Positions 1,440 through 12,901 of a DNA stretch of 15,394 bases are shown here, piece by piece (within the stretch, counting starts at the first letter, position 1; each line of letters starts with the position of its first letter). Below the pieces are notes generated by a model. That model was not told the origin of the DNA. It did no database searches and saw only the letters and a list, made by a program, of their open reading frames with translations. The position numbers and the translations under genes were made by a program. Location: IMG/VR virus record IMGVR_UViG_2526164633_000052; one strand, written 5' to 3'. The DNA is from a virus (lineage: Duplodnaviria > Heunggongvirae > Uroviricota > Caudoviricetes).

Positions 1440-1954
1440 TATCAATGCTATTAGCAGGGAGATATATCACCAGAGTTTAATGTGTGATTTTTTATTTATC
1501 GTCGAACCTGGATTGTTTATCATTGGCCTTAACAAAGTTAACGGCTAATAAGATTATTTCCATCACTTCGTGAGAGCTTCATGCCTTGAGAGGATCTCAA
1601 TTTTCTTTTGCAATGAGACAGGCGCTTCCTGTTGTTATGGTATAGTACCCCGCTATTGAGCCTCCTGAATAGTGATGCTGAATAACATAACCCCATGATA
1701 TATCGATAAAATAATCTCTACATTTGAAAATGCACGGTAATTCTGAAATGCAAAAAATCAACCAAACCAGCGCAATGCCTGAAAAAACTGACGTTCACTG
1801 GAGTGGTCGGTTTAGCGTTGCACCAATGCTCGATAGGATGTACCGTTTTTGAAAAACAACTAGTTATACACTTTGTGGGAGCCTATTGGGAACCTGAAGT
1901 TTTGCTCTTTCTATTCATATCTATTCATAAAGCACCATTTGCTGCCTTATCTGA

Positions 1955-1983
1955 TTGACCAAAAACAACCGCGGTTATAGACT
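1955..1983 (+). promoter_or_regulatory. Candidate sigma70 promoter for the 2037-3027 cassette, followed by a short inverted repeat (ctaag...cttag, about 1997-2015) that could be an autoregulatory operator
   Basis: TTGACC, 17-bp spacer, TAGACT; GAGG ribosome-binding site 5 nt before ATG 2037. Confidence 0.3.
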
Positions 1984-2036
1984 TTGCTCCAAATAGCTAA
2001 GGCTATTGCTTAGTAAGTAAAACAGTTGAGGTTGCC

Positions 2037-2576
2037 ATGAATCCGTTTAACGCCATTACTTTTGCTGCATTGTGCGGGCCTCTGGCTTGTCCTGCTGCTA
2101 TGGCGCAGGAGTTCATCATCCAGCCAGCCCCTGTGATTGCTAAACCTTTTGAGTACTCTCCTTCTGTTGAGGAATTCTCACGCAAAATGGAAGAGGGTAA
2201 GGAGATCTTGCAAAAGTTAACAATTGCAGCAGATGACTACTATATCTGTTTGATTGATCTTAATAGCCAAGATGCTCGCGAGTTTGTTTCCAAAAACGGG
2301 ACAGATACGACAGAGGCATGCGAAATGTTCCTGCGTGCTTTTGAAGAAGAAGTGAAGCGTACAATTGAATCGCCTCTGCCTGAATTTATCAGGTCAGAAC
2401 TGAAGGTTTACTGGCGTCATATTGCTAAAGCTCGCTCATCTGTCACTCGCCTTAACAATTACATAAAGAGCATATTTAAAGAAACTGTTACTTTTAGCGG
2501 GCGCGCGGATCTTGCTGGAATTGCAGCACTAGCTAGTCACACATCAAATAAGCTAAAATCGATGCAATTTCACTAA
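2037..2576 (+). CDS. Hypothetical 179-aa protein, upstream partner of the YafO-like toxin (candidate non-canonical antitoxin); N-terminus hydrophobic and signal-peptide-like
   Basis: Good RBS (GAGG) before ATG 2037; 16-bp gap to downstream toxin ORF; no recognisable HTH/RHH or Phd/YefM features; alternative internal start at Met51 (2187). Confidence 0.5.
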   Translation: MNPFNAITFAALCGPLACPAAMAQEFIIQPAPVIAKPFEYSPSVEEFSRKMEEGKEILQKLTIAADDYYICLIDLNSQDAREFVSKNGTDTTEACEMFLRAFEEEVKRTIESPLPEFIRSELKVYWRHIAKARSSVTRLNNYIKSIFKETVTFSGRADLAGIAALASHTSNKLKSMQFH

Positions 2577-2592
2577 CCGATAGCGGACGACC

Positions 2593-3027
2593 ATGCATCT
2601 AGAAGTCTCTATTAATCCAGAAACTAGAGCTGAATTTTTTGATGAAGTTTTTCTCAAATTCCCGGAGCTAGAGTCTTCTATCATTGATGATTTCAAGAGA
2701 TACAAAGCAACCGGTGAGCTTCCGCATTATTTCGGTAGGGACGTTGCGTATACTCAGCCTTATGGTGCTTTTCGGGCTGGGTTGATGCATATCCATCTTT
2801 GTCTACCGCCAAACAAGTTTCCCGAGAAACTTCCACAACCGGATAGGGTCTGCAAGAAAGGTGATCCTGATAATGATGCTTGTCTTGTGTATGTCCAAGG
2901 TGAGCTTTATGAGAATAAATATTCACTCATTGCTATTATGTATCCCGATGCACATGAAAAAGCAAGAAAACATGATGTGATGAGCTATCTGGCGCGAATT
3001 GCCCAGAATTATAAAGATGAAAACTAA
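2593..3027 (+). CDS. YafO-family type II toxin (ribosome-dependent mRNA interferase family)
   Basis: By-eye alignment to E. coli YafO as recalled: YKxxGxLPxxFGRDxxY, HIHL, LVYxQG, LIAIxxPxxHxxAR motifs in the same order and spacing; 144 aa. Confidence 0.7.
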   Translation: MHLEVSINPETRAEFFDEVFLKFPELESSIIDDFKRYKATGELPHYFGRDVAYTQPYGAFRAGLMHIHLCLPPNKFPEKLPQPDRVCKKGDPDNDACLVYVQGELYENKYSLIAIMYPDAHEKARKHDVMSYLARIAQNYKDEN

Positions 3028-3048
3028 CCCGCCGAAGCGGGTTTTTTG
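3027..3048. terminator. Intrinsic terminator between the convergent toxin gene and the PrtN-like gene
   Basis: Stem acccgc/gcgggt with cgaa loop followed by tttttt on the plus strand; A/T-rich on the other side as well. Confidence 0.55.
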
Positions 3049-3935: not shown

Positions 3936-4486
3936 CACTTCACCTCCTGCGGCGGTTCCGGTAGCGGCATCCAGTGAGTTGCTTGCTCAATACCATTACC
4001 CGGCTTAATCGTTGCATCTCCGCGCCGAAAGGTGCTTCCGGTATAGCGTGCGGAGCATATTAGCGGTTCAACCAGAGAGCTATCGAAATTCACCGAAATA
4101 AGCACGTTCTGGCCCTTTTCAGGCATTCGATCACTACAGATTATCCAACTATCCGGAGTTCCCGGAGAGTTGCCATTTACATCGAAGTTTGGCTCTGCGT
4201 CCTGAACCAGGAGGATGTAACCATTCTTGGCTGTATCAAGTTCTAACGCCTCGGTGACGGTGCCGAAATAGCGATTACCTAAATCAGCATCACAAGTGCT
4301 TACATCAATGGAAACTTCCATGCCTTCGATTAATTCTGGCAAGTTGTAAGTTTGGCTTATAGGCTCTGCTTCCAGCGATGCCAGTGCAATTTCATAAGCA
4401 CGGCGCTCAATATTGTCTCGAACGTCCAGGCCGCCTATGCGCTCTTTGATTTCTTTAATCAGTTCTTTGTCGGTAAAAGTGGTCAT
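3935..4486 (-). CDS. DUF551-domain phage protein
   Basis: C-terminal WIICSDRMPEKGQNVL...HWMPLPEPP is the typical DUF551 signature; translationally coupled (ATGA overlaps) to both neighbours. Confidence 0.7.
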   Translation of the reverse strand: MTTFTDKELIKEIKERIGGLDVRDNIERRAYEIALASLEAEPISQTYNLPELIEGMEVSIDVSTCDADLGNRYFGTVTEALELDTAKNGYILLVQDAEPNFDVNGNSPGTPDSWIICSDRMPEKGQNVLISVNFDSSLVEPLICSARYTGSTFRRGDATIKPGNGIEQATHWMPLPEPPQEVK

Positions 4487-4848
4487 GCTGTAGCCCCTTC
4501 TTGATATTTTTCAAACCAGAACACAACCGGGTCAGATTTCATTTCAACCAATCCCATACGAACCAGCGCCTTGCCTTTCCCGGACGCAAGGAATTCACGA
4601 CGACCATCACTGATAATTCGCCGATAATCTTCCAGGCTACTGCAATGCTTGTGCAGATTGCATGGGTGGCATGCCGGAACCATGTTGGATATATCGTCAC
4701 GTTCCTGGTGAAGCATATTTCCAGCAAAACGAATGACCGGTTTTACATGGTCTGCATGCCACTTTTCGCCAAGTTCGCAGCCGCAATAAGCGCAGCGACC
4801 ACCGAACTTCATGCGCAGTTCTGCACGTTGTTTTTTCGTCAGTGCCAT
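4483..4848 (-). CDS. HNH endonuclease
   Basis: CAYCGCEL...WHADHVKP...VPACHPCNLHK: two Cys pairs plus the H-N-H core; start taken at ATG 4848 (MALTKK...) rather than the ORF-track upstream Met. Confidence 0.75.
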   Translation of the reverse strand: MALTKKQRAELRMKFGGRCAYCGCELGEKWHADHVKPVIRFAGNMLHQERDDISNMVPACHPCNLHKHCSSLEDYRRIISDGRREFLASGKGKALVRMGLVEMKSDPVVFWFEKYQEGATA

Positions 4849-4849
4849 A

Positions 4850-5068
4850 TCAGCTTTCCTTATATGGATTAATTTTATTGTGCAGTGTGTTGAACGACGC
4901 CCATACCACGTCGTTATACAATTCAATAACTGGCTCAATTATTTTCCCGATTGCCCATACCAGAATTAACGGGGATATCGGTATCATCAACACGATAAAC
5001 AGAATGAGAAACAAAAATTCTGTCGCTCTACTTCTTCGCGGATATTCTTTTCTGAATAATGTCGGCAT
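4850..5068 (-). CDS. Small single-pass membrane protein (72 aa)
   Basis: GGAGAG RBS 4-5 nt before ATG 5068; one clear transmembrane segment FLFLILFIVLMIPISPLILVWAIG. Confidence 0.45.
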   Translation of the reverse strand: MPTLFRKEYPRRSRATEFLFLILFIVLMIPISPLILVWAIGKIIEPVIELYNDVVWASFNTLHNKINPYKES

Positions 5069-5069
5069 A

Positions 5070-5261
5070 TCACTCTCCTTTAGTGCGCAAGTGGTTTTCC
5101 CAGCGGTTTTGCGCCGCGCTGGGCTTATCTTTGACTCCCTCTCTGGCAATTCCAGAATATAAGTACAACACCACACGGCGATTGCTAACTCTCAACCACT
5201 GGCAGGGATAGCAACGTCTGTATACACGGGAAATAAGCATCTTTGCTTTACGGTTTTTCAT
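5070..5261 (-). CDS. Small basic protein (63 aa), paralog of the next ORF
   Basis: Starts MKNRKAK; its ATG overlaps the stop of the upstream paralog; shares N-terminus and a diverged KP(S/T)A(A/S)QNR segment with ORF 5258-5434. Confidence 0.4.
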   Translation of the reverse strand: MKNRKAKMLISRVYRRCYPCQWLRVSNRRVVLYLYSGIAREGVKDKPSAAQNRWENHLRTKGE

Positions 5262-5434
5262 CTTACTGCGTACCCTTTCTTTCGCCTGTTCTGTGACGCT
5301 GTAGGCTTACGCTTTGCGGCAAAAGCCACCTGACCAAATGGATGGAGTACTGCTATCTTATGGTTGCTGATAACCAGCTCCACCACACGCACAGGTCGCT
5401 GTAAAAAAAGTCGTTTTGCTTTACGGTTTTTCAT
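5258..5434 (-). CDS. Small basic protein (58 aa, below the ORF-track cutoff), paralog of 5070-5261
   Basis: Hand translation MKNRKAKRLFLQRPVRVVELVISNHKIAVLHPFGQVAFAAKRKPTASQNRRKKGYAVR; AGGAG RBS 9 nt upstream; the first 20 nt are identical to the start of the downstream paralog. Confidence 0.35.
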   Translation of the reverse strand: MKNRKAKRLFLQRPVRVVELVISNHKIAVLHPFGQVAFAAKRKPTASQNRRKKGYAVR

Positions 5435-5606
5435 CGTTTTGCTCTCCTGCGTTTCTTTGCTGCACGTCGTGCAGCTGCAATACCGGTATGGCGGTGCTTT
5501 GGTGCCGGGATGATGTTGTCAGCCATCAGGACATGTGGCTTTGCAATTAGCGCAGAAGCCCAAAAACGAGTCGGGTACGGTAACAAGTCGATACATGCCA
5601 CACGCA

Positions 5607-6236
5607 TTACTCACCTTCTTTGATGCGAATGCCAGCGGCGCGTGGCACATTAACTTCCACGATGCGCACAGTTGGTTTGTACATCTCAATCGCTGTCAGC
5701 CAGTCAGCGCCGGTCATATGCTTTTCTGCATCGCCATTAGTCCATTGAACCGGCACACCAATAGCTTTCATCGCAATTTCTATTTCCCCGGCAATGGCGC
5801 TTTTCCCGCAACCAGTAAAACCAGAGACAACGACAAGAACTTCGCCTTTGGCTGGTTTTATTTCCCGTGCTTCCAGTTCTGCTATGCGCTTCTCTGCGGC
5901 TTCCAGCTTGGCTTCTGCATCTTTGGCTCGCATCTGCCAGTTGATAGCGATGTCGATAACGCTGTTAGCACAACTGGACTCGTTCTCTTCGGCAGCTTTA
6001 GCTTCAGAAAGCTCATCAAGCAATCCAAGAACAACAGTTGGCGTGGCGAGCGTGATAAAACGCATATTGCTCATATGCTCTTCATCGCTGACCTCATCTC
6101 CAGCCTCGACCGCTGCCATGTGCTGAACATAGCCGCTATCACAGGTATTCCAGATTGCCCCTGCCTCGTAACCCCATTCACCATGTAGTGCTTTTTCTGC
6201 CGCCTCACGCAGTGCCTGGTAATTAATTTCGCTCAC
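5607..6236 (-). CDS. Coiled-coil early protein, probably an Ea22-like mosaic-family member (from memory, unverified)
   Basis: GTG start with AGGAGG RBS; N-terminus SEINYQALREAAEKA and central KRIAELE coiled coil; overlaps the stop of the upstream gene. Confidence 0.6.
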   Translation of the reverse strand: MSEINYQALREAAEKALHGEWGYEAGAIWNTCDSGYVQHMAAVEAGDEVSDEEHMSNMRFITLATPTVVLGLLDELSEAKAAEENESSCANSVIDIAINWQMRAKDAEAKLEAAEKRIAELEAREIKPAKGEVLVVVSGFTGCGKSAIAGEIEIAMKAIGVPVQWTNGDAEKHMTGADWLTAIEMYKPTVRIVEVNVPRAAGIRIKEGE

Positions 6237-6913
6237 TGACAGCCTCCTTTGCGAAGCTCTGCAGCGAAATATACAGCTGCGGAAACAATAGCTGCATGTC
6301 GGTATTCACCATCAGAAAAGAGAGAATCTCCCTTAAGTGCATTGACGATACTCTGATGATTTTTTGCCAGCATCTCCACACCCTGCGCCCGTACTTCAGC
6401 CAGGAAAGCATCTGTAGCCGGGGTTTGCGGCATACCTCCGTCTGTTGCGCAGATATACGCATCAGATAGTTCATCCTGCTCGCCATCAAACACGTAGCAA
6501 CTCTGTGCGATAAATTTATTTAGCCCCGCATTCTCCGCCGCCAGCGCCGCGCAATTACCCTCCAGCTCTGCAATGCGCTGTTTTGCAGCATCAAGTTCAA
6601 TCGATAATTTTTCCAACTGCTCTTTATGCTTCTTGTATTCCTGATATGCGTGCCAGGACTGACCTTTGCGCACACTATCAGTAATATCAGTAATCTGTTC
6701 TGGTGTTAGCGTGGTCAGTGGCTGTGCTGGGAAAATCAGCACTTTCCCGGAATCCCAATCAAAACCAGCGTGAATTGACTGAACCTCAACTGAGGGTGTT
6801 GAACCAATGCTGCCAGGCGAATGAACAACGATCGTTACATCCATATCGCGACGATGGCTGTGGTTGTTGGACAAAATACGATTCACCAACTCAGAAAATT
6901 TGGAGAATTTCAT
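6233..6913 (-). CDS. Mosaic coiled-coil phage protein; C-terminal half paralogous to ORF 7329-7907
   Basis: Start taken at ATG 6913 (GAGG RBS 6 nt upstream); contains the 134-bp segment that is repeated in 7594-7727. Confidence 0.6.
   Translation of the reverse strand: MKFSKFSELVNRILSNNHSHRRDMDVTIVVHSPGSIGSTPSVEVQSIHAGFDWDSGKVLIFPAQPLTTLTPEQITDITDSVRKGQSWHAYQEYKKHKEQLEKLSIELDAAKQRIAELEGNCAALAAENAGLNKFIAQSCYVFDGEQDELSDAYICATDGGMPQTPATDAFLAEVRAQGVEMLAKNHQSIVNALKGDSLFSDGEYRHAAIVSAAVYFAAELRKGGCQ
6420..6553. repeat. Copy A of an approximately 134-bp near-identical direct repeat (copy B at 7594-7727)
   Basis: Direct comparison of the two stretches: only a handful of mismatches over about 134 bp; both copies are inside coding sequence and encode ...CAALAAENAGLNKFIAQSCYVFDGEQDELSDAYICA... 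Confidence 0.8.
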
Positions 6914-6921
6914 GCGGAGCC

Positions 6922-7332
6922 TCAATATGCAAAATAGACCGTTGCCACGCCGTTATAGTGATCAAACGATACGGCGTTTACTTCATAGCTGGCAGGGAGC
7001 TTCGAGCCGAGAACATATCCGGGCCACGTTTTCCATGGAATTTCTCTACTCTCACTACCCCCATATACCGTACATCCAAGTGAACCTACAGCCTCGTCAG
7101 AACGTTTGCCGCATGTTATGAAACCTATATTTTTCTTGCTGGTCTTAATGGCGATTGGGTGAACACTGGCTGATGCATTGGCAGCACGCTGTGACTGTTG
7201 GTTTGCGATATTCGCAGAGTTCGCAGCAGCTACAGCAGCCATGGTCGCGGCGGTAGATGCCACAATAACTGCTGAAGCCTGCGCCTGTTGGGTAATGGTC
7301 AGCAATGCCGCCACAAAAATCATCTTCTTCAC
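6922..7332 (-). CDS. Secreted or periplasmic protein with N-terminal signal peptide (136 aa), function unknown
   Basis: GTG start with GGAG RBS 7 nt upstream; MKKMIFVAALLTITQQAQA has the n/h/c regions and an AxA cleavage motif of a Sec signal peptide; Ala/Ser/Asn-rich mature N-terminus. Confidence 0.6.
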   Translation of the reverse strand: MKKMIFVAALLTITQQAQASAVIVASTAATMAAVAAANSANIANQQSQRAANASASVHPIAIKTSKKNIGFITCGKRSDEAVGSLGCTVYGGSESREIPWKTWPGYVLGSKLPASYEVNAVSFDHYNGVATVYFAY

Positions 7333-12068: not shown

Positions 12069-12901
12069 ACAGTTTAACGGCAAATAACCGTTTGTCGCAA
12101 CAGCTGGTGGTCAGCGTCGCTGAACACCTGTTGTTACGGCATGAATGCAGATTACCAAATCACCTGGCTGTAAGTAACCACAGAGAACTTTACCTGACTG
12201 TGGGGGGCGAGTTGTGCAGGAACTTAACCGCTGGTTTCGTGACGGAAGAGGACTTTATGTTCATGTTATTCGTTGGGAGCCAGAAACACAGCGCGTTATC
12301 TATCTTCGCAAAGACTACCCGCATGAGTGCTTTAGTCCTTTGTGGAAATTCAGGCGTGATTTTGTTGAGTGTGAAGGACCACCAGCACATTGATTCTGCC
12401 ATTCCGGGACGTTACACTGTTCAGGCACCTTATAAAGCGGGTGCCGGGATTGGCGTCCTGGAATTGATCAAGGCGATATATGACGCGCCAGCGTCTTTTT
12501 TATCGTCCGCATTTGCTCACATCAAAGTTATGGTGGGCTGGGCGGGGGCATCGAAAGATGCGCCGGTTTCCTTGATCACCGGTTACGCCAACCCCGTTCA
12601 GTTCACCACCAGCGAAATTGGCGTTTCCGGTGGTGGAAGTATTTCACCGATCAAGGAGGCTGCCATCATGGCTACTGTCCCAGCCCTCACTCGTCTGAAT
12701 GATGAAGACTTACATAAACTCAGTTATGTAACAACTGCACTACGTGCTCTGCGCAAGGTAACTCTTTCGGATCCCCAGGCGCATCAGGTTTTGGTAGAAA
12801 CCCTTCTTAACTTGCAGGCTGAACGTATTCGTCTGGCGGATAAGGCTAATTTTCATATTCACCGTCTCCTGAATATCAGCGGAGGGCATCGTCATGCTTA
12901 A
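12065..12901 (+). CDS. Hypothetical protein (278-aa ORF); gene structure uncertain
   Basis: Long open frame translationally coupled to both neighbours (ATGA at 12065; downstream ATG 12894 overlaps its end); no family recognised; 12178-12402 is open in three frames. Confidence 0.4.
   Translation: MNSLTANNRLSQQLVVSVAEHLLLRHECRLPNHLAVSNHRELYLTVGGELCRNLTAGFVTEEDFMFMLFVGSQKHSALSIFAKTTRMSALVLCGNSGVILLSVKDHQHIDSAIPGRYTVQAPYKAGAGIGVLELIKAIYDAPASFLSSAFAHIKVMVGWAGASKDAPVSLITGYANPVQFTTSEIGVSGGGSISPIKEAAIMATVPALTRLNDEDLHKLSYVTTALRALRKVTLSDPQAHQVLVETLLNLQAERIRLADKANFHIHRLLNISGGHRHA

Follow-up and report, generated by a model that had tools for sequence, protein, structure and literature searches.

The window, a 15,394-nucleotide stretch of a virus of the Caudoviricetes (IMG/VR record IMGVR_UViG_2526164633_000052), carries on its minus strand three small overlapping genes, here called orfA, orfB and orfC, which lie between an ead/Ea22-like gene and a gene for a DUF4014 protein. 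The genes and sequence features of the locus are as follows, in order of position.

4483-4848, minus strand: HNH endonuclease gene, in the same operon after the DUF4014 gene (PF01844, E 1.5e-6; PGAP)
4850-5068, minus strand: DUF4014 gene, 72 aa with one hydrophobic segment (PF13198, E 1.4e-24; phrog_1832; PGAP)
5070-5261, minus strand: orfC, 63 aa, PHROG 1380 core type T1 (phrog_1380; WP_071783682.1)
5241-5305, minus strand: copy-to-copy junction module, made up of 48 nt from the end of orfB and 21 nt from the start of orfC, near-identical even in arrays with cores that are unrelated in nucleotide sequence
5258-5434, minus strand: orfB, 58 aa, PHROG 1380 core type T3, pI 12.0, net charge +15 (phrog_1380; WP_000797289.1)
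5263-5294, minus strand: protospacer of 32 nt with TC as its 5' flank, identical to a type I-F spacer of E. coli LF82
5431-5607, minus strand: orfA, 58 aa, pI 11.9, net charge +12 (phrog_13831; WP_001261528.1)
5434-5457, minus strand: degenerate third copy of the PHROG 1380 5' module, 18 of 24 nt matching (repeat search)
5459-5475, no strand assigned: palindrome of 17 nt (8+1+8) within Ala/Arg codons of the orfA tail (read directly)
5607-6236, minus strand: ead/Ea22-like gene, 209 aa (PF13935, E 3.8e-15; PGAP ead/Ea22-like family protein)

Genomic setting

The locus is part of an E. coli prophage and belongs to its early-left operon. Two complete E. coli chromosomes, those of FDAARGOS_1059 and O111:H2 12A, contain the 1 kb around orfA-orfC with 100% identity, and in the identical RefSeq prophage the genes of the minus strand run from a LexA-family repressor (ymfK) through yfdP, yfdQ, yfdR, two hypotheticals and the ead/Ea22-like gene to three small hypotheticals, DUF4014, the HNH endonuclease, DUF551, a 3'-5' exonuclease and a PrtN-family protein. 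The remainder of the window is the divergent right operon, with ymfT, ymfL and on to RusA. Both in the identical RefSeq prophage and in Stx phage 933W, the locus comes after ea22 and before the excision/integration genes, all on one strand; in 933W the homologous stretch falls between the ea22-like gene L0069 and xis. This corresponds to the variable part of the exo-xis region, which is transcribed early from pL and in which the number and kind of genes after ea22 vary, with full or partial duplications in Stx phages (PMC8614690). The orfA/orfB/orfC region was found in 1512 of 5426 complete E. coli genomes, about a quarter.

Positions 4300 to 7000 are free of terminator-like sites, and the one promoter-like site among them is not on the coding strand but on the opposite one; an Rfam scan gave no match in or near the orfA-orfC region. 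Elsewhere in the window (12425-12613, plus strand) Rfam places isrK (64 bits) beside a C4 antisense RNA (82 bits), in the part of the right operon where RefSeq calls ash-family and DUF4222 genes; the pair looks like a regulatory RNA module of the P1/P7 c4 type or the Gifsy isrK type. Next to the prophage end (about 1730-3030 of the window) the RefSeq annotation has a gene for a YafO-family toxin, a neighboring hypothetical gene and a tRNA-dihydrouridine synthase gene fragment of 105 nt. These adjoin a frameshifted DUF2713 pseudogene, followed by zur, an arrangement which suggests integration into a dus gene.

orfB and orfC in the PHROG 1380 family

It had been noted from the sequence of the window that orfB (5258-5434) and orfC (5070-5261), adjacent on the minus strand, both begin MKNRKAK, have 20 nucleotides in common, retain a diverged KPxAxQNR block and are linked by an ATGA stop/start overlap, and each of these observations is borne out. 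The 20-mer ATGAAAAACCGTAAAGCAAA is found at 5242-5261 and at 5415-5434 and nowhere else, against an expectation of 0 in 200 shuffles that stays 0 even with three mismatches allowed; the two proteins align by BLASTP with 41% identity (E 2e-7). They are paralogs, as was also suggested, and belong to one family, phrog_1380, the profile of which matches both over their full length (orfB, E 6.5e-23, residues 1-58 against positions 1-60 of 62; orfC, E 1.1e-33, residues 1-63 against positions 1-62 of 62). A BLASTP comparison of the cores only found nothing, the two cores being unalignable as a pair, so the similarity between orfB and orfC is carried entirely by the junction modules at their termini.

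The organization of the family was addressed with 80 related IMG/VR loci, fetched with the family alignment and then scanned with the profile, 83 sequences being scanned in all. There are 108 PHROG 1380 copies in 81 distinct loci, every one an intact open frame, and they stand as one, two or three copies per array (57, 25 and 1 of the 83 scanned sequences, respectively), always head-to-tail and with ATGA overlaps. The nearly invariant motifs are an M(K/N)NRKAK N-terminus, an SN(R/H) turn, a Gly and a C-terminal K-x-(S/T)-A-(A/S)-Q-N-R, while the cores of about 35 residues that lie between the conserved ends are of at least six very different types, T1 to T6. The combinations seen were T5, T1, T2, T3-T1, T6-T1, T2-T1, T4-T1, T3-T2-T1 and T3-T2, with the T1 core thus also occurring alone.

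The contrast between ends and cores is pronounced at the nucleotide level. Among non-last copies, identity between core types is 95% over the 5' 21 nt and 87% over the 3' 48 nt, against 43% over the core; for T2, T3 and T6 the 3' 48 nt reach 94%, with the cores of T2 and T3 at 33%. Resolved by codon, between-type identity is 0.92 at codons 1-7 (0.78 at third positions), 0.38-0.43 in the core and 0.72 at codons 46-54. The C-terminal tail is set by the position of a copy in its array and not by its core type: ..QNRRKKGYAVR is the ending of every non-last copy (26 of 26), with ..QNRWKNHLRTKGE or some other tail in each of the 82 last copies. T2 cores bear both tails within the scanned loci, and T4 and T6 cores with a last-copy tail are present in the protein database (P0059, P0062). 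In the window, orfB has the non-last form, ..QNRRKKGYAVR, and ATGA overlaps at both of its ends; orfC has the last-copy form, ..QNRWENHLRTKGE, the codons of which include AAGGAG, the ribosome-binding site for the gene that follows.

Given that the 5' end is about 95% identical across core types, the 20-nt identity of orfB and orfC is to be seen as a family-wide conserved junction, not as something left over from a recent duplication. orfC has its closest relatives among the T1 copies of other phages (87-94% amino acid identity), single-copy loci included, and orfB among T3 copies. The suggestion that the pair arose by tandem duplication and divergence at this site is accordingly not upheld, similarity being limited to the termini and the same cores being found alone or otherwise combined elsewhere. 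Because variable cores, near-identical junctions and a position-dependent tail recur across the 80 loci, the pair in the window, T3 followed by T1, is best read as two old alleles stacked by recombination.

Analysis of the surroundings shows that an orfA-type gene lies directly upstream of the array in 29 of the 54 non-T5 loci and in none of the 26 T5 loci, and that the gene downstream of the array differs among loci. Since the neighbors vary in this way, orfA, orfB and orfC are independent modules rather than one fixed system. A small Cys-rich gene (MAIAASYTMHLYCDC...) replaces DUF4014 after the array in 21 of the 54 non-T5 loci (L008, L014 and L015, for example; protein P0089); it is absent from the window.

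The family is a narrow one of enterobacterial phages: an exhaustive search of 1.84 billion representative proteins gave about 50 clusters, and a scan of species-representative genomes gave no confirmed locus. The copy-to-copy junction is present in 145-152 of the 5426 complete E. coli genomes, and two thirds of the places where it occurs in these genomes are on plasmids of about 90-100 kb. Members were also seen beyond the lambdoid prophages, in phage Av-05, the Salmonella phages Sasha and Sergei, phiV10, P1-like phage-plasmids and a Yersinia phage, the BFVD match A0A076G5Z6 being one such record. This occurrence outside lambdoid prophages suggests that the PHROG 1380 gene moves between unrelated phage types.

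A diversity-generating retroelement was considered as the source of the cores and rejected: there is no reverse transcriptase in the annotated prophage stretch, and the cores are discrete rather than point-variable. The protospacer at 5263-5294 lies in the conserved 3' tail module of orfB; the matching spacer, ACAGAACAGGCGAAAGAAAGGGTACGCAGTAA (also L084 701-732), comes from the type I-F CRISPR array of E. coli LF82, which has 21 copies of the repeat GTTCACTGCCGTACAGGCAGCTTAGAAA. The PAM expected for type I-F is CC, and the flank here is TC.

orfA and its Arg-rich tail

Immediately upstream of orfB, a separate Arg-rich frame of 31 codons (5431-5526) had been proposed. These are instead the last 31 codons of the 58-codon orfA: the 58-codon form alone matches the phrog_13831 profile end to end (positions 1-58 of 58, E about 3e-40), PGAP annotates the gene at this length, and the 933W homologue has an in-frame 21-nt deletion that drops the internal Met28 and keeps the long frame. 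In 19 distinct intact homologues of 177 nt, frame 0 is stop-free throughout and frames 1 and 2 carry stops, with dN/dS of 0.49 for codons 2-27 and 0.39 for codons 28-58. From these comparisons we conclude that orfA is protein-coding and 58 aa long. Its N-terminal half is variable and hydrophobic, and its Ala/Arg/Lys tail, TGIAAARRAAKKRRRAKR, is invariant; in distant relatives the N-terminal halves are about 55% identical and the tail is unchanged. The short Arg-rich segment AAARRAAKKRRRAKR of the tail is kept in all homologues through synonymous variation, and a role as an RNA-binding Arg-rich motif (ARM) is possible for it.

The last eight codons of orfA (KKRRRAKR, compared with MKNRKAKR) abut the genuine 5' module of orfB, and they constitute the degenerate third copy of that module at 5434-5457; besides the two genuine modules, no further stretch on either strand of the window matches it at 17 or more of the 24 positions. 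The degenerate copy contains the AGGAGA ribosome-binding site for orfB, and it may be what is left of a cassette start or of a tandem duplication of 23 nt.

The orfA tail also contains a palindrome, reported as a perfect 15-bp element at 5458-5472. The element, ctgcacgtcgtgcag, is real, but its true position is 5460-5474, or 5459-5475 when taken as 17 nt. Palindromes of the 7+1+7 form number three in the window against 1.1 expected, which is not above chance, and this one is exact in only one of the 19 distinct orfA homologues, synonymous changes in Ala/Arg codons breaking it in the others. We judge it a chance by-product. An operator or hairpin at this site was ruled out on the same grounds, chance-level occurrence and lack of conservation, together with an RNA fold z-score of -0.75.

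Coding status and annotation

Conservation of the three frames in related prophages had been put forward as a check on their being genes, and it is what we find: every relative keeps them intact, stops are present in the other frames, and dN/dS stays below 1. Within PHROG 1380 core types dN/dS ranges from 0.07 to 0.40; T5, the best-sampled divergent type, has pS of 0.53 and dN/dS of 0.12. Values of 0.3-0.5, as for T1, T2 and orfA, indicate moderate constraint only. On this evidence orfA, orfB and orfC are all concluded to be protein-coding.

The original prediction held that such genes are easily missed by annotation, and this is so in part. RefSeq lists all three as hypothetical proteins, and two complete E. 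coli genomes have annotated genes of identical sequence; older records, such as that of 933W (AF125520), miss two of them. The 933W record lacks the orfA homologue at 2536-2691 (51 aa, with an in-frame deletion of 7 codons) and the PHROG 1380 copy at 2688-2876. In the same record L0068 (2806-3093) is over-extended by 24 codons into the PHROG 1380 copy, its true start being likely the MAIAASY at 2878. Many database proteins of this family with 82-103 aa (P0001, P0003, P0014, P0027 and others) are likewise over-extended calls, and these are of two kinds: in one the 3' end of an upstream copy is read in another frame (..RVTEQAEERVRSK-MKNRKAK), and in the other a deletion has produced a fusion with the N-terminus of Ea22. 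What was already known, then, is the three genes as hypothetical proteins and as the families phrog_1380 and phrog_13831; the tandem-array organization, with its conserved junctions and variable cores, is the new descriptive point. Taken as a whole, the observation made in the window is partly confirmed and the interpretation placed on it partly supported. A full-text literature search found no paper on these three genes, and in the exo-xis literature they are neither named nor studied.

Translation signals

All of the gene starts in this part of the operon overlap or closely follow the end of the preceding gene. The stop of the Ea22-like gene overlaps the start of orfA (TAATG, with the ATG at 5607), which is preceded by the ribosome-binding site GGTGAG. 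For orfB, the sequence AGGAGA stands 8 nt upstream, inside Arg codons of the orfA tail, and is followed by the ATGA overlap; orfC has only a weak AAAGGG before its ATGA, and its translation probably depends on termination-reinitiation. The DUF4014 gene begins 1 nt past the orfC stop (TGATATG), its AAGGAG being contained in the orfC codons for ..TKGE. As the ribosome-binding sites of the next genes are embedded in the tails, part of the conservation of the tails at the nucleotide level has this origin. RNA structure at the gene junctions was ruled out, the fold z-scores of 0.83, -0.75 and -1.53 being those of unstructured sequence.

Charge, predicted fold and function searches

That the three products are small, very basic early proteins is correct (pI 10.8-12.0). 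The same property is found throughout PHROG 1380, whose members have about 60 aa, a net charge of +10 to +18 and a pI of 10.4-12, whatever the core. An AF2 model of orfC, built with a 32-sequence alignment and of moderate confidence (pLDDT 76.5, pTM 0.47), places a helix at residues 4-16, strands at 20-26, 29-34 and 39-44, and a helix at 49-61. In this model the conserved residues map to the start of helix 1, the turn between beta1 and beta2, and the start of helix 2. The order alpha-beta-beta-beta-alpha is that of the dsRBD/HicA fold, and the predicted protein agrees with it in element order and in size (about 60-70 residues), an agreement of secondary structure only. At the corresponding turn the E. 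coli HicA sequence reads GSNH (checked against 6hpb_A), and the turn histidine of SN(R/H) is Arg in T1, T2, T5 and T6, four of the six core types.

Pfam, NCBIfam and PADLOC gave no informative match to orfA, orfB or orfC, with no PADLOC defense-system family hit by any of the three; a profile made from the orfB/orfC family alignment matched nothing in the PDB; Pfam searches with the 32 aligned members gave scattered single matches only; and no structural similarity to solved dsRBD or HicA structures was found. Membership of the family in HicA/dsRBD was rejected, hhalign against E. coli HicA returning a probability of 0.08.

Discussion

The explanation that we consider rather probable is that orfA, orfB and orfC are translationally coupled early accessory genes, that the PHROG 1380 arrays are built by recombination, and that the cationic products would bind a polyanion. 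That lambdoid phages become mosaic through recombination at short conserved flanks is established (PMC2327257, PMC3233612), and the mosaic patterns described here make it most likely that co-infecting phages recombine homologously at the conserved junctions, by which the arrays would be built and reshuffled. The operon would be transcribed right after induction or infection, and ribosomes that finish one gene would move on to the next at the TAATG and ATGA overlaps. The proposal that the products bind a polyanion follows from charge being the property held across all cores; the most likely partner is nucleic acid, whether DNA or RNA and perhaps the ribosome, and proteins of such high positive charge could also bind membranes or acidic proteins. 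The bound products may then modulate a host or phage process as accessory modulators, with the conserved termini and the SN(R/H) turn making a common contact and the core giving any specificity.

The comparison with known systems places the arrays close to the boundary or linker sequences of mosaic phages (PMC3233612, PMC2327257), in that near-identical segments of 21 and 48 nt flank segments of background identity, a pattern to which the exchange of modules by homologous recombination has been ascribed. The PHROG 1380 segments differ in lying inside coding sequence, where they encode the N- and C-termini of one small protein family, and in also joining tandem copies, which gives variation in copy number in addition to exchange of alleles. 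Sequences identical to the three genes are already represented by phrog_1380, phrog_13831 and RefSeq WP_ entries, but those families come without a described function, structure or array organization. With other genes of the exo-xis or ea region they share small size, a non-essential character and a place on the early-left transcript after ea22 (PMC8614690); the exo-xis proteins that have been studied show no similarity to them in sequence or fold.

The other readings differ over how the array arose and what it is for. A recent tandem duplication in place, with rapid divergence, would make the 20 identical nucleotides a leftover of the duplicated unit; it would account for two adjacent genes of one family on one strand, joined by ATGA overlaps and sharing an identical 20-mer, and the family must at some time have arisen by duplication. 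Yet the copies within the array would then be each other's closest relatives, and the pattern observed is the opposite, orfC being nearest to T1 copies elsewhere and orfB to T3 copies, with cores that cannot be aligned and that are combined differently in other phages. The 5' identity on which this reading leans extends at about 95% over all six core types and for that reason reveals nothing of any recent event at this site. It is unlikely that the array originated in a recent local duplication, and we consider this reading as a whole to be improbable. Somewhat better, though still unlikely, is an arms-race locus in which the termini dock on a common partner, a hypervariable core sets specificity against host defense or competing phages, and stacking broadens the range. 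Very diverse cores between conserved ends, variable copy number, the stacking of different alleles, a place among early accessory genes and a spread over unrelated temperate phage types and P1-like phage-plasmids would all suit it. Against this, evolution within core types is purifying and not diversifying, neither PADLOC nor Pfam gives similarity to a known counter-defense or defense protein, the clusters are only some 50 in the 1.84 billion proteins, and multi-copy arrays occur in only about 150 of roughly 1500 carrier genomes. A related form, a specificity locus shuffled by recombination, in which invariant termini would dock a conserved partner, the cores would recognize variants of a host or rival-phage target, and stacking would widen the range, seems to us quite unlikely.

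As to the products, PHROG 1380 might be a diverged RNA binder of the dsRBD/HicA kind, possibly an RNase, with orfA a binder of the ARM kind typified by lambda N and Nun. The modeled element order in about 60 aa, the size and the basic nature of the proteins speak for the former, as do conserved residues at the helix starts and at the SN(R/H) turn, equivalent to GSNH of HicA; for the latter there is the Arg-rich tail, conserved through synonymous changes, a short Arg/Lys/Ala-rich segment like the ARMs of lambda N, HK022 Nun and HIV Tat/Rev. The PHROG 1380 proteins lack, however, profile similarity to HicA (the hhalign probability given above), a supporting Pfam match in 32 members, a structural match and a conserved catalytic His, the turn position being Arg in most core types. 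The ARM-like segment of orfA is C-terminal and not N-terminal as in those proteins, a boxB-like RNA partner is not known for it, and its last residues are in part fixed by the orfB ribosome-binding site embedded in the tail. We regard this combined reading as a long shot. It is least credible, to the point of being highly improbable, that the frames are non-functional, being either spurious or of use only for relaying ribosomes from ea22 into the genes that come after them. Such a view would fit their very short length, the lack of a known domain, the tight overlaps and the many mis-called and over-extended database entries; it is at odds with MKNRKAK, SN(R/H) and SAAQNR being invariant over cores of about 40% nucleotide identity, with dN/dS below 1, with conserved length and charge, and with 108 of 108 copies being intact.

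The result is a descriptive one. It corrects annotation, in that the 31-codon frame becomes a 58-aa gene, the 933W record gains two genes, and L0068 and many entries of 82-103 aa can be shortened. The exo-xis/ea region in which the genes lie is known to influence the lysis-lysogeny decision of Stx phages, and temperate phages have a great many small early genes with functions yet to be assigned. For these the locus provides a clean, testable example, combining translational coupling, interchangeable cores, conserved junctions and variable copy number.
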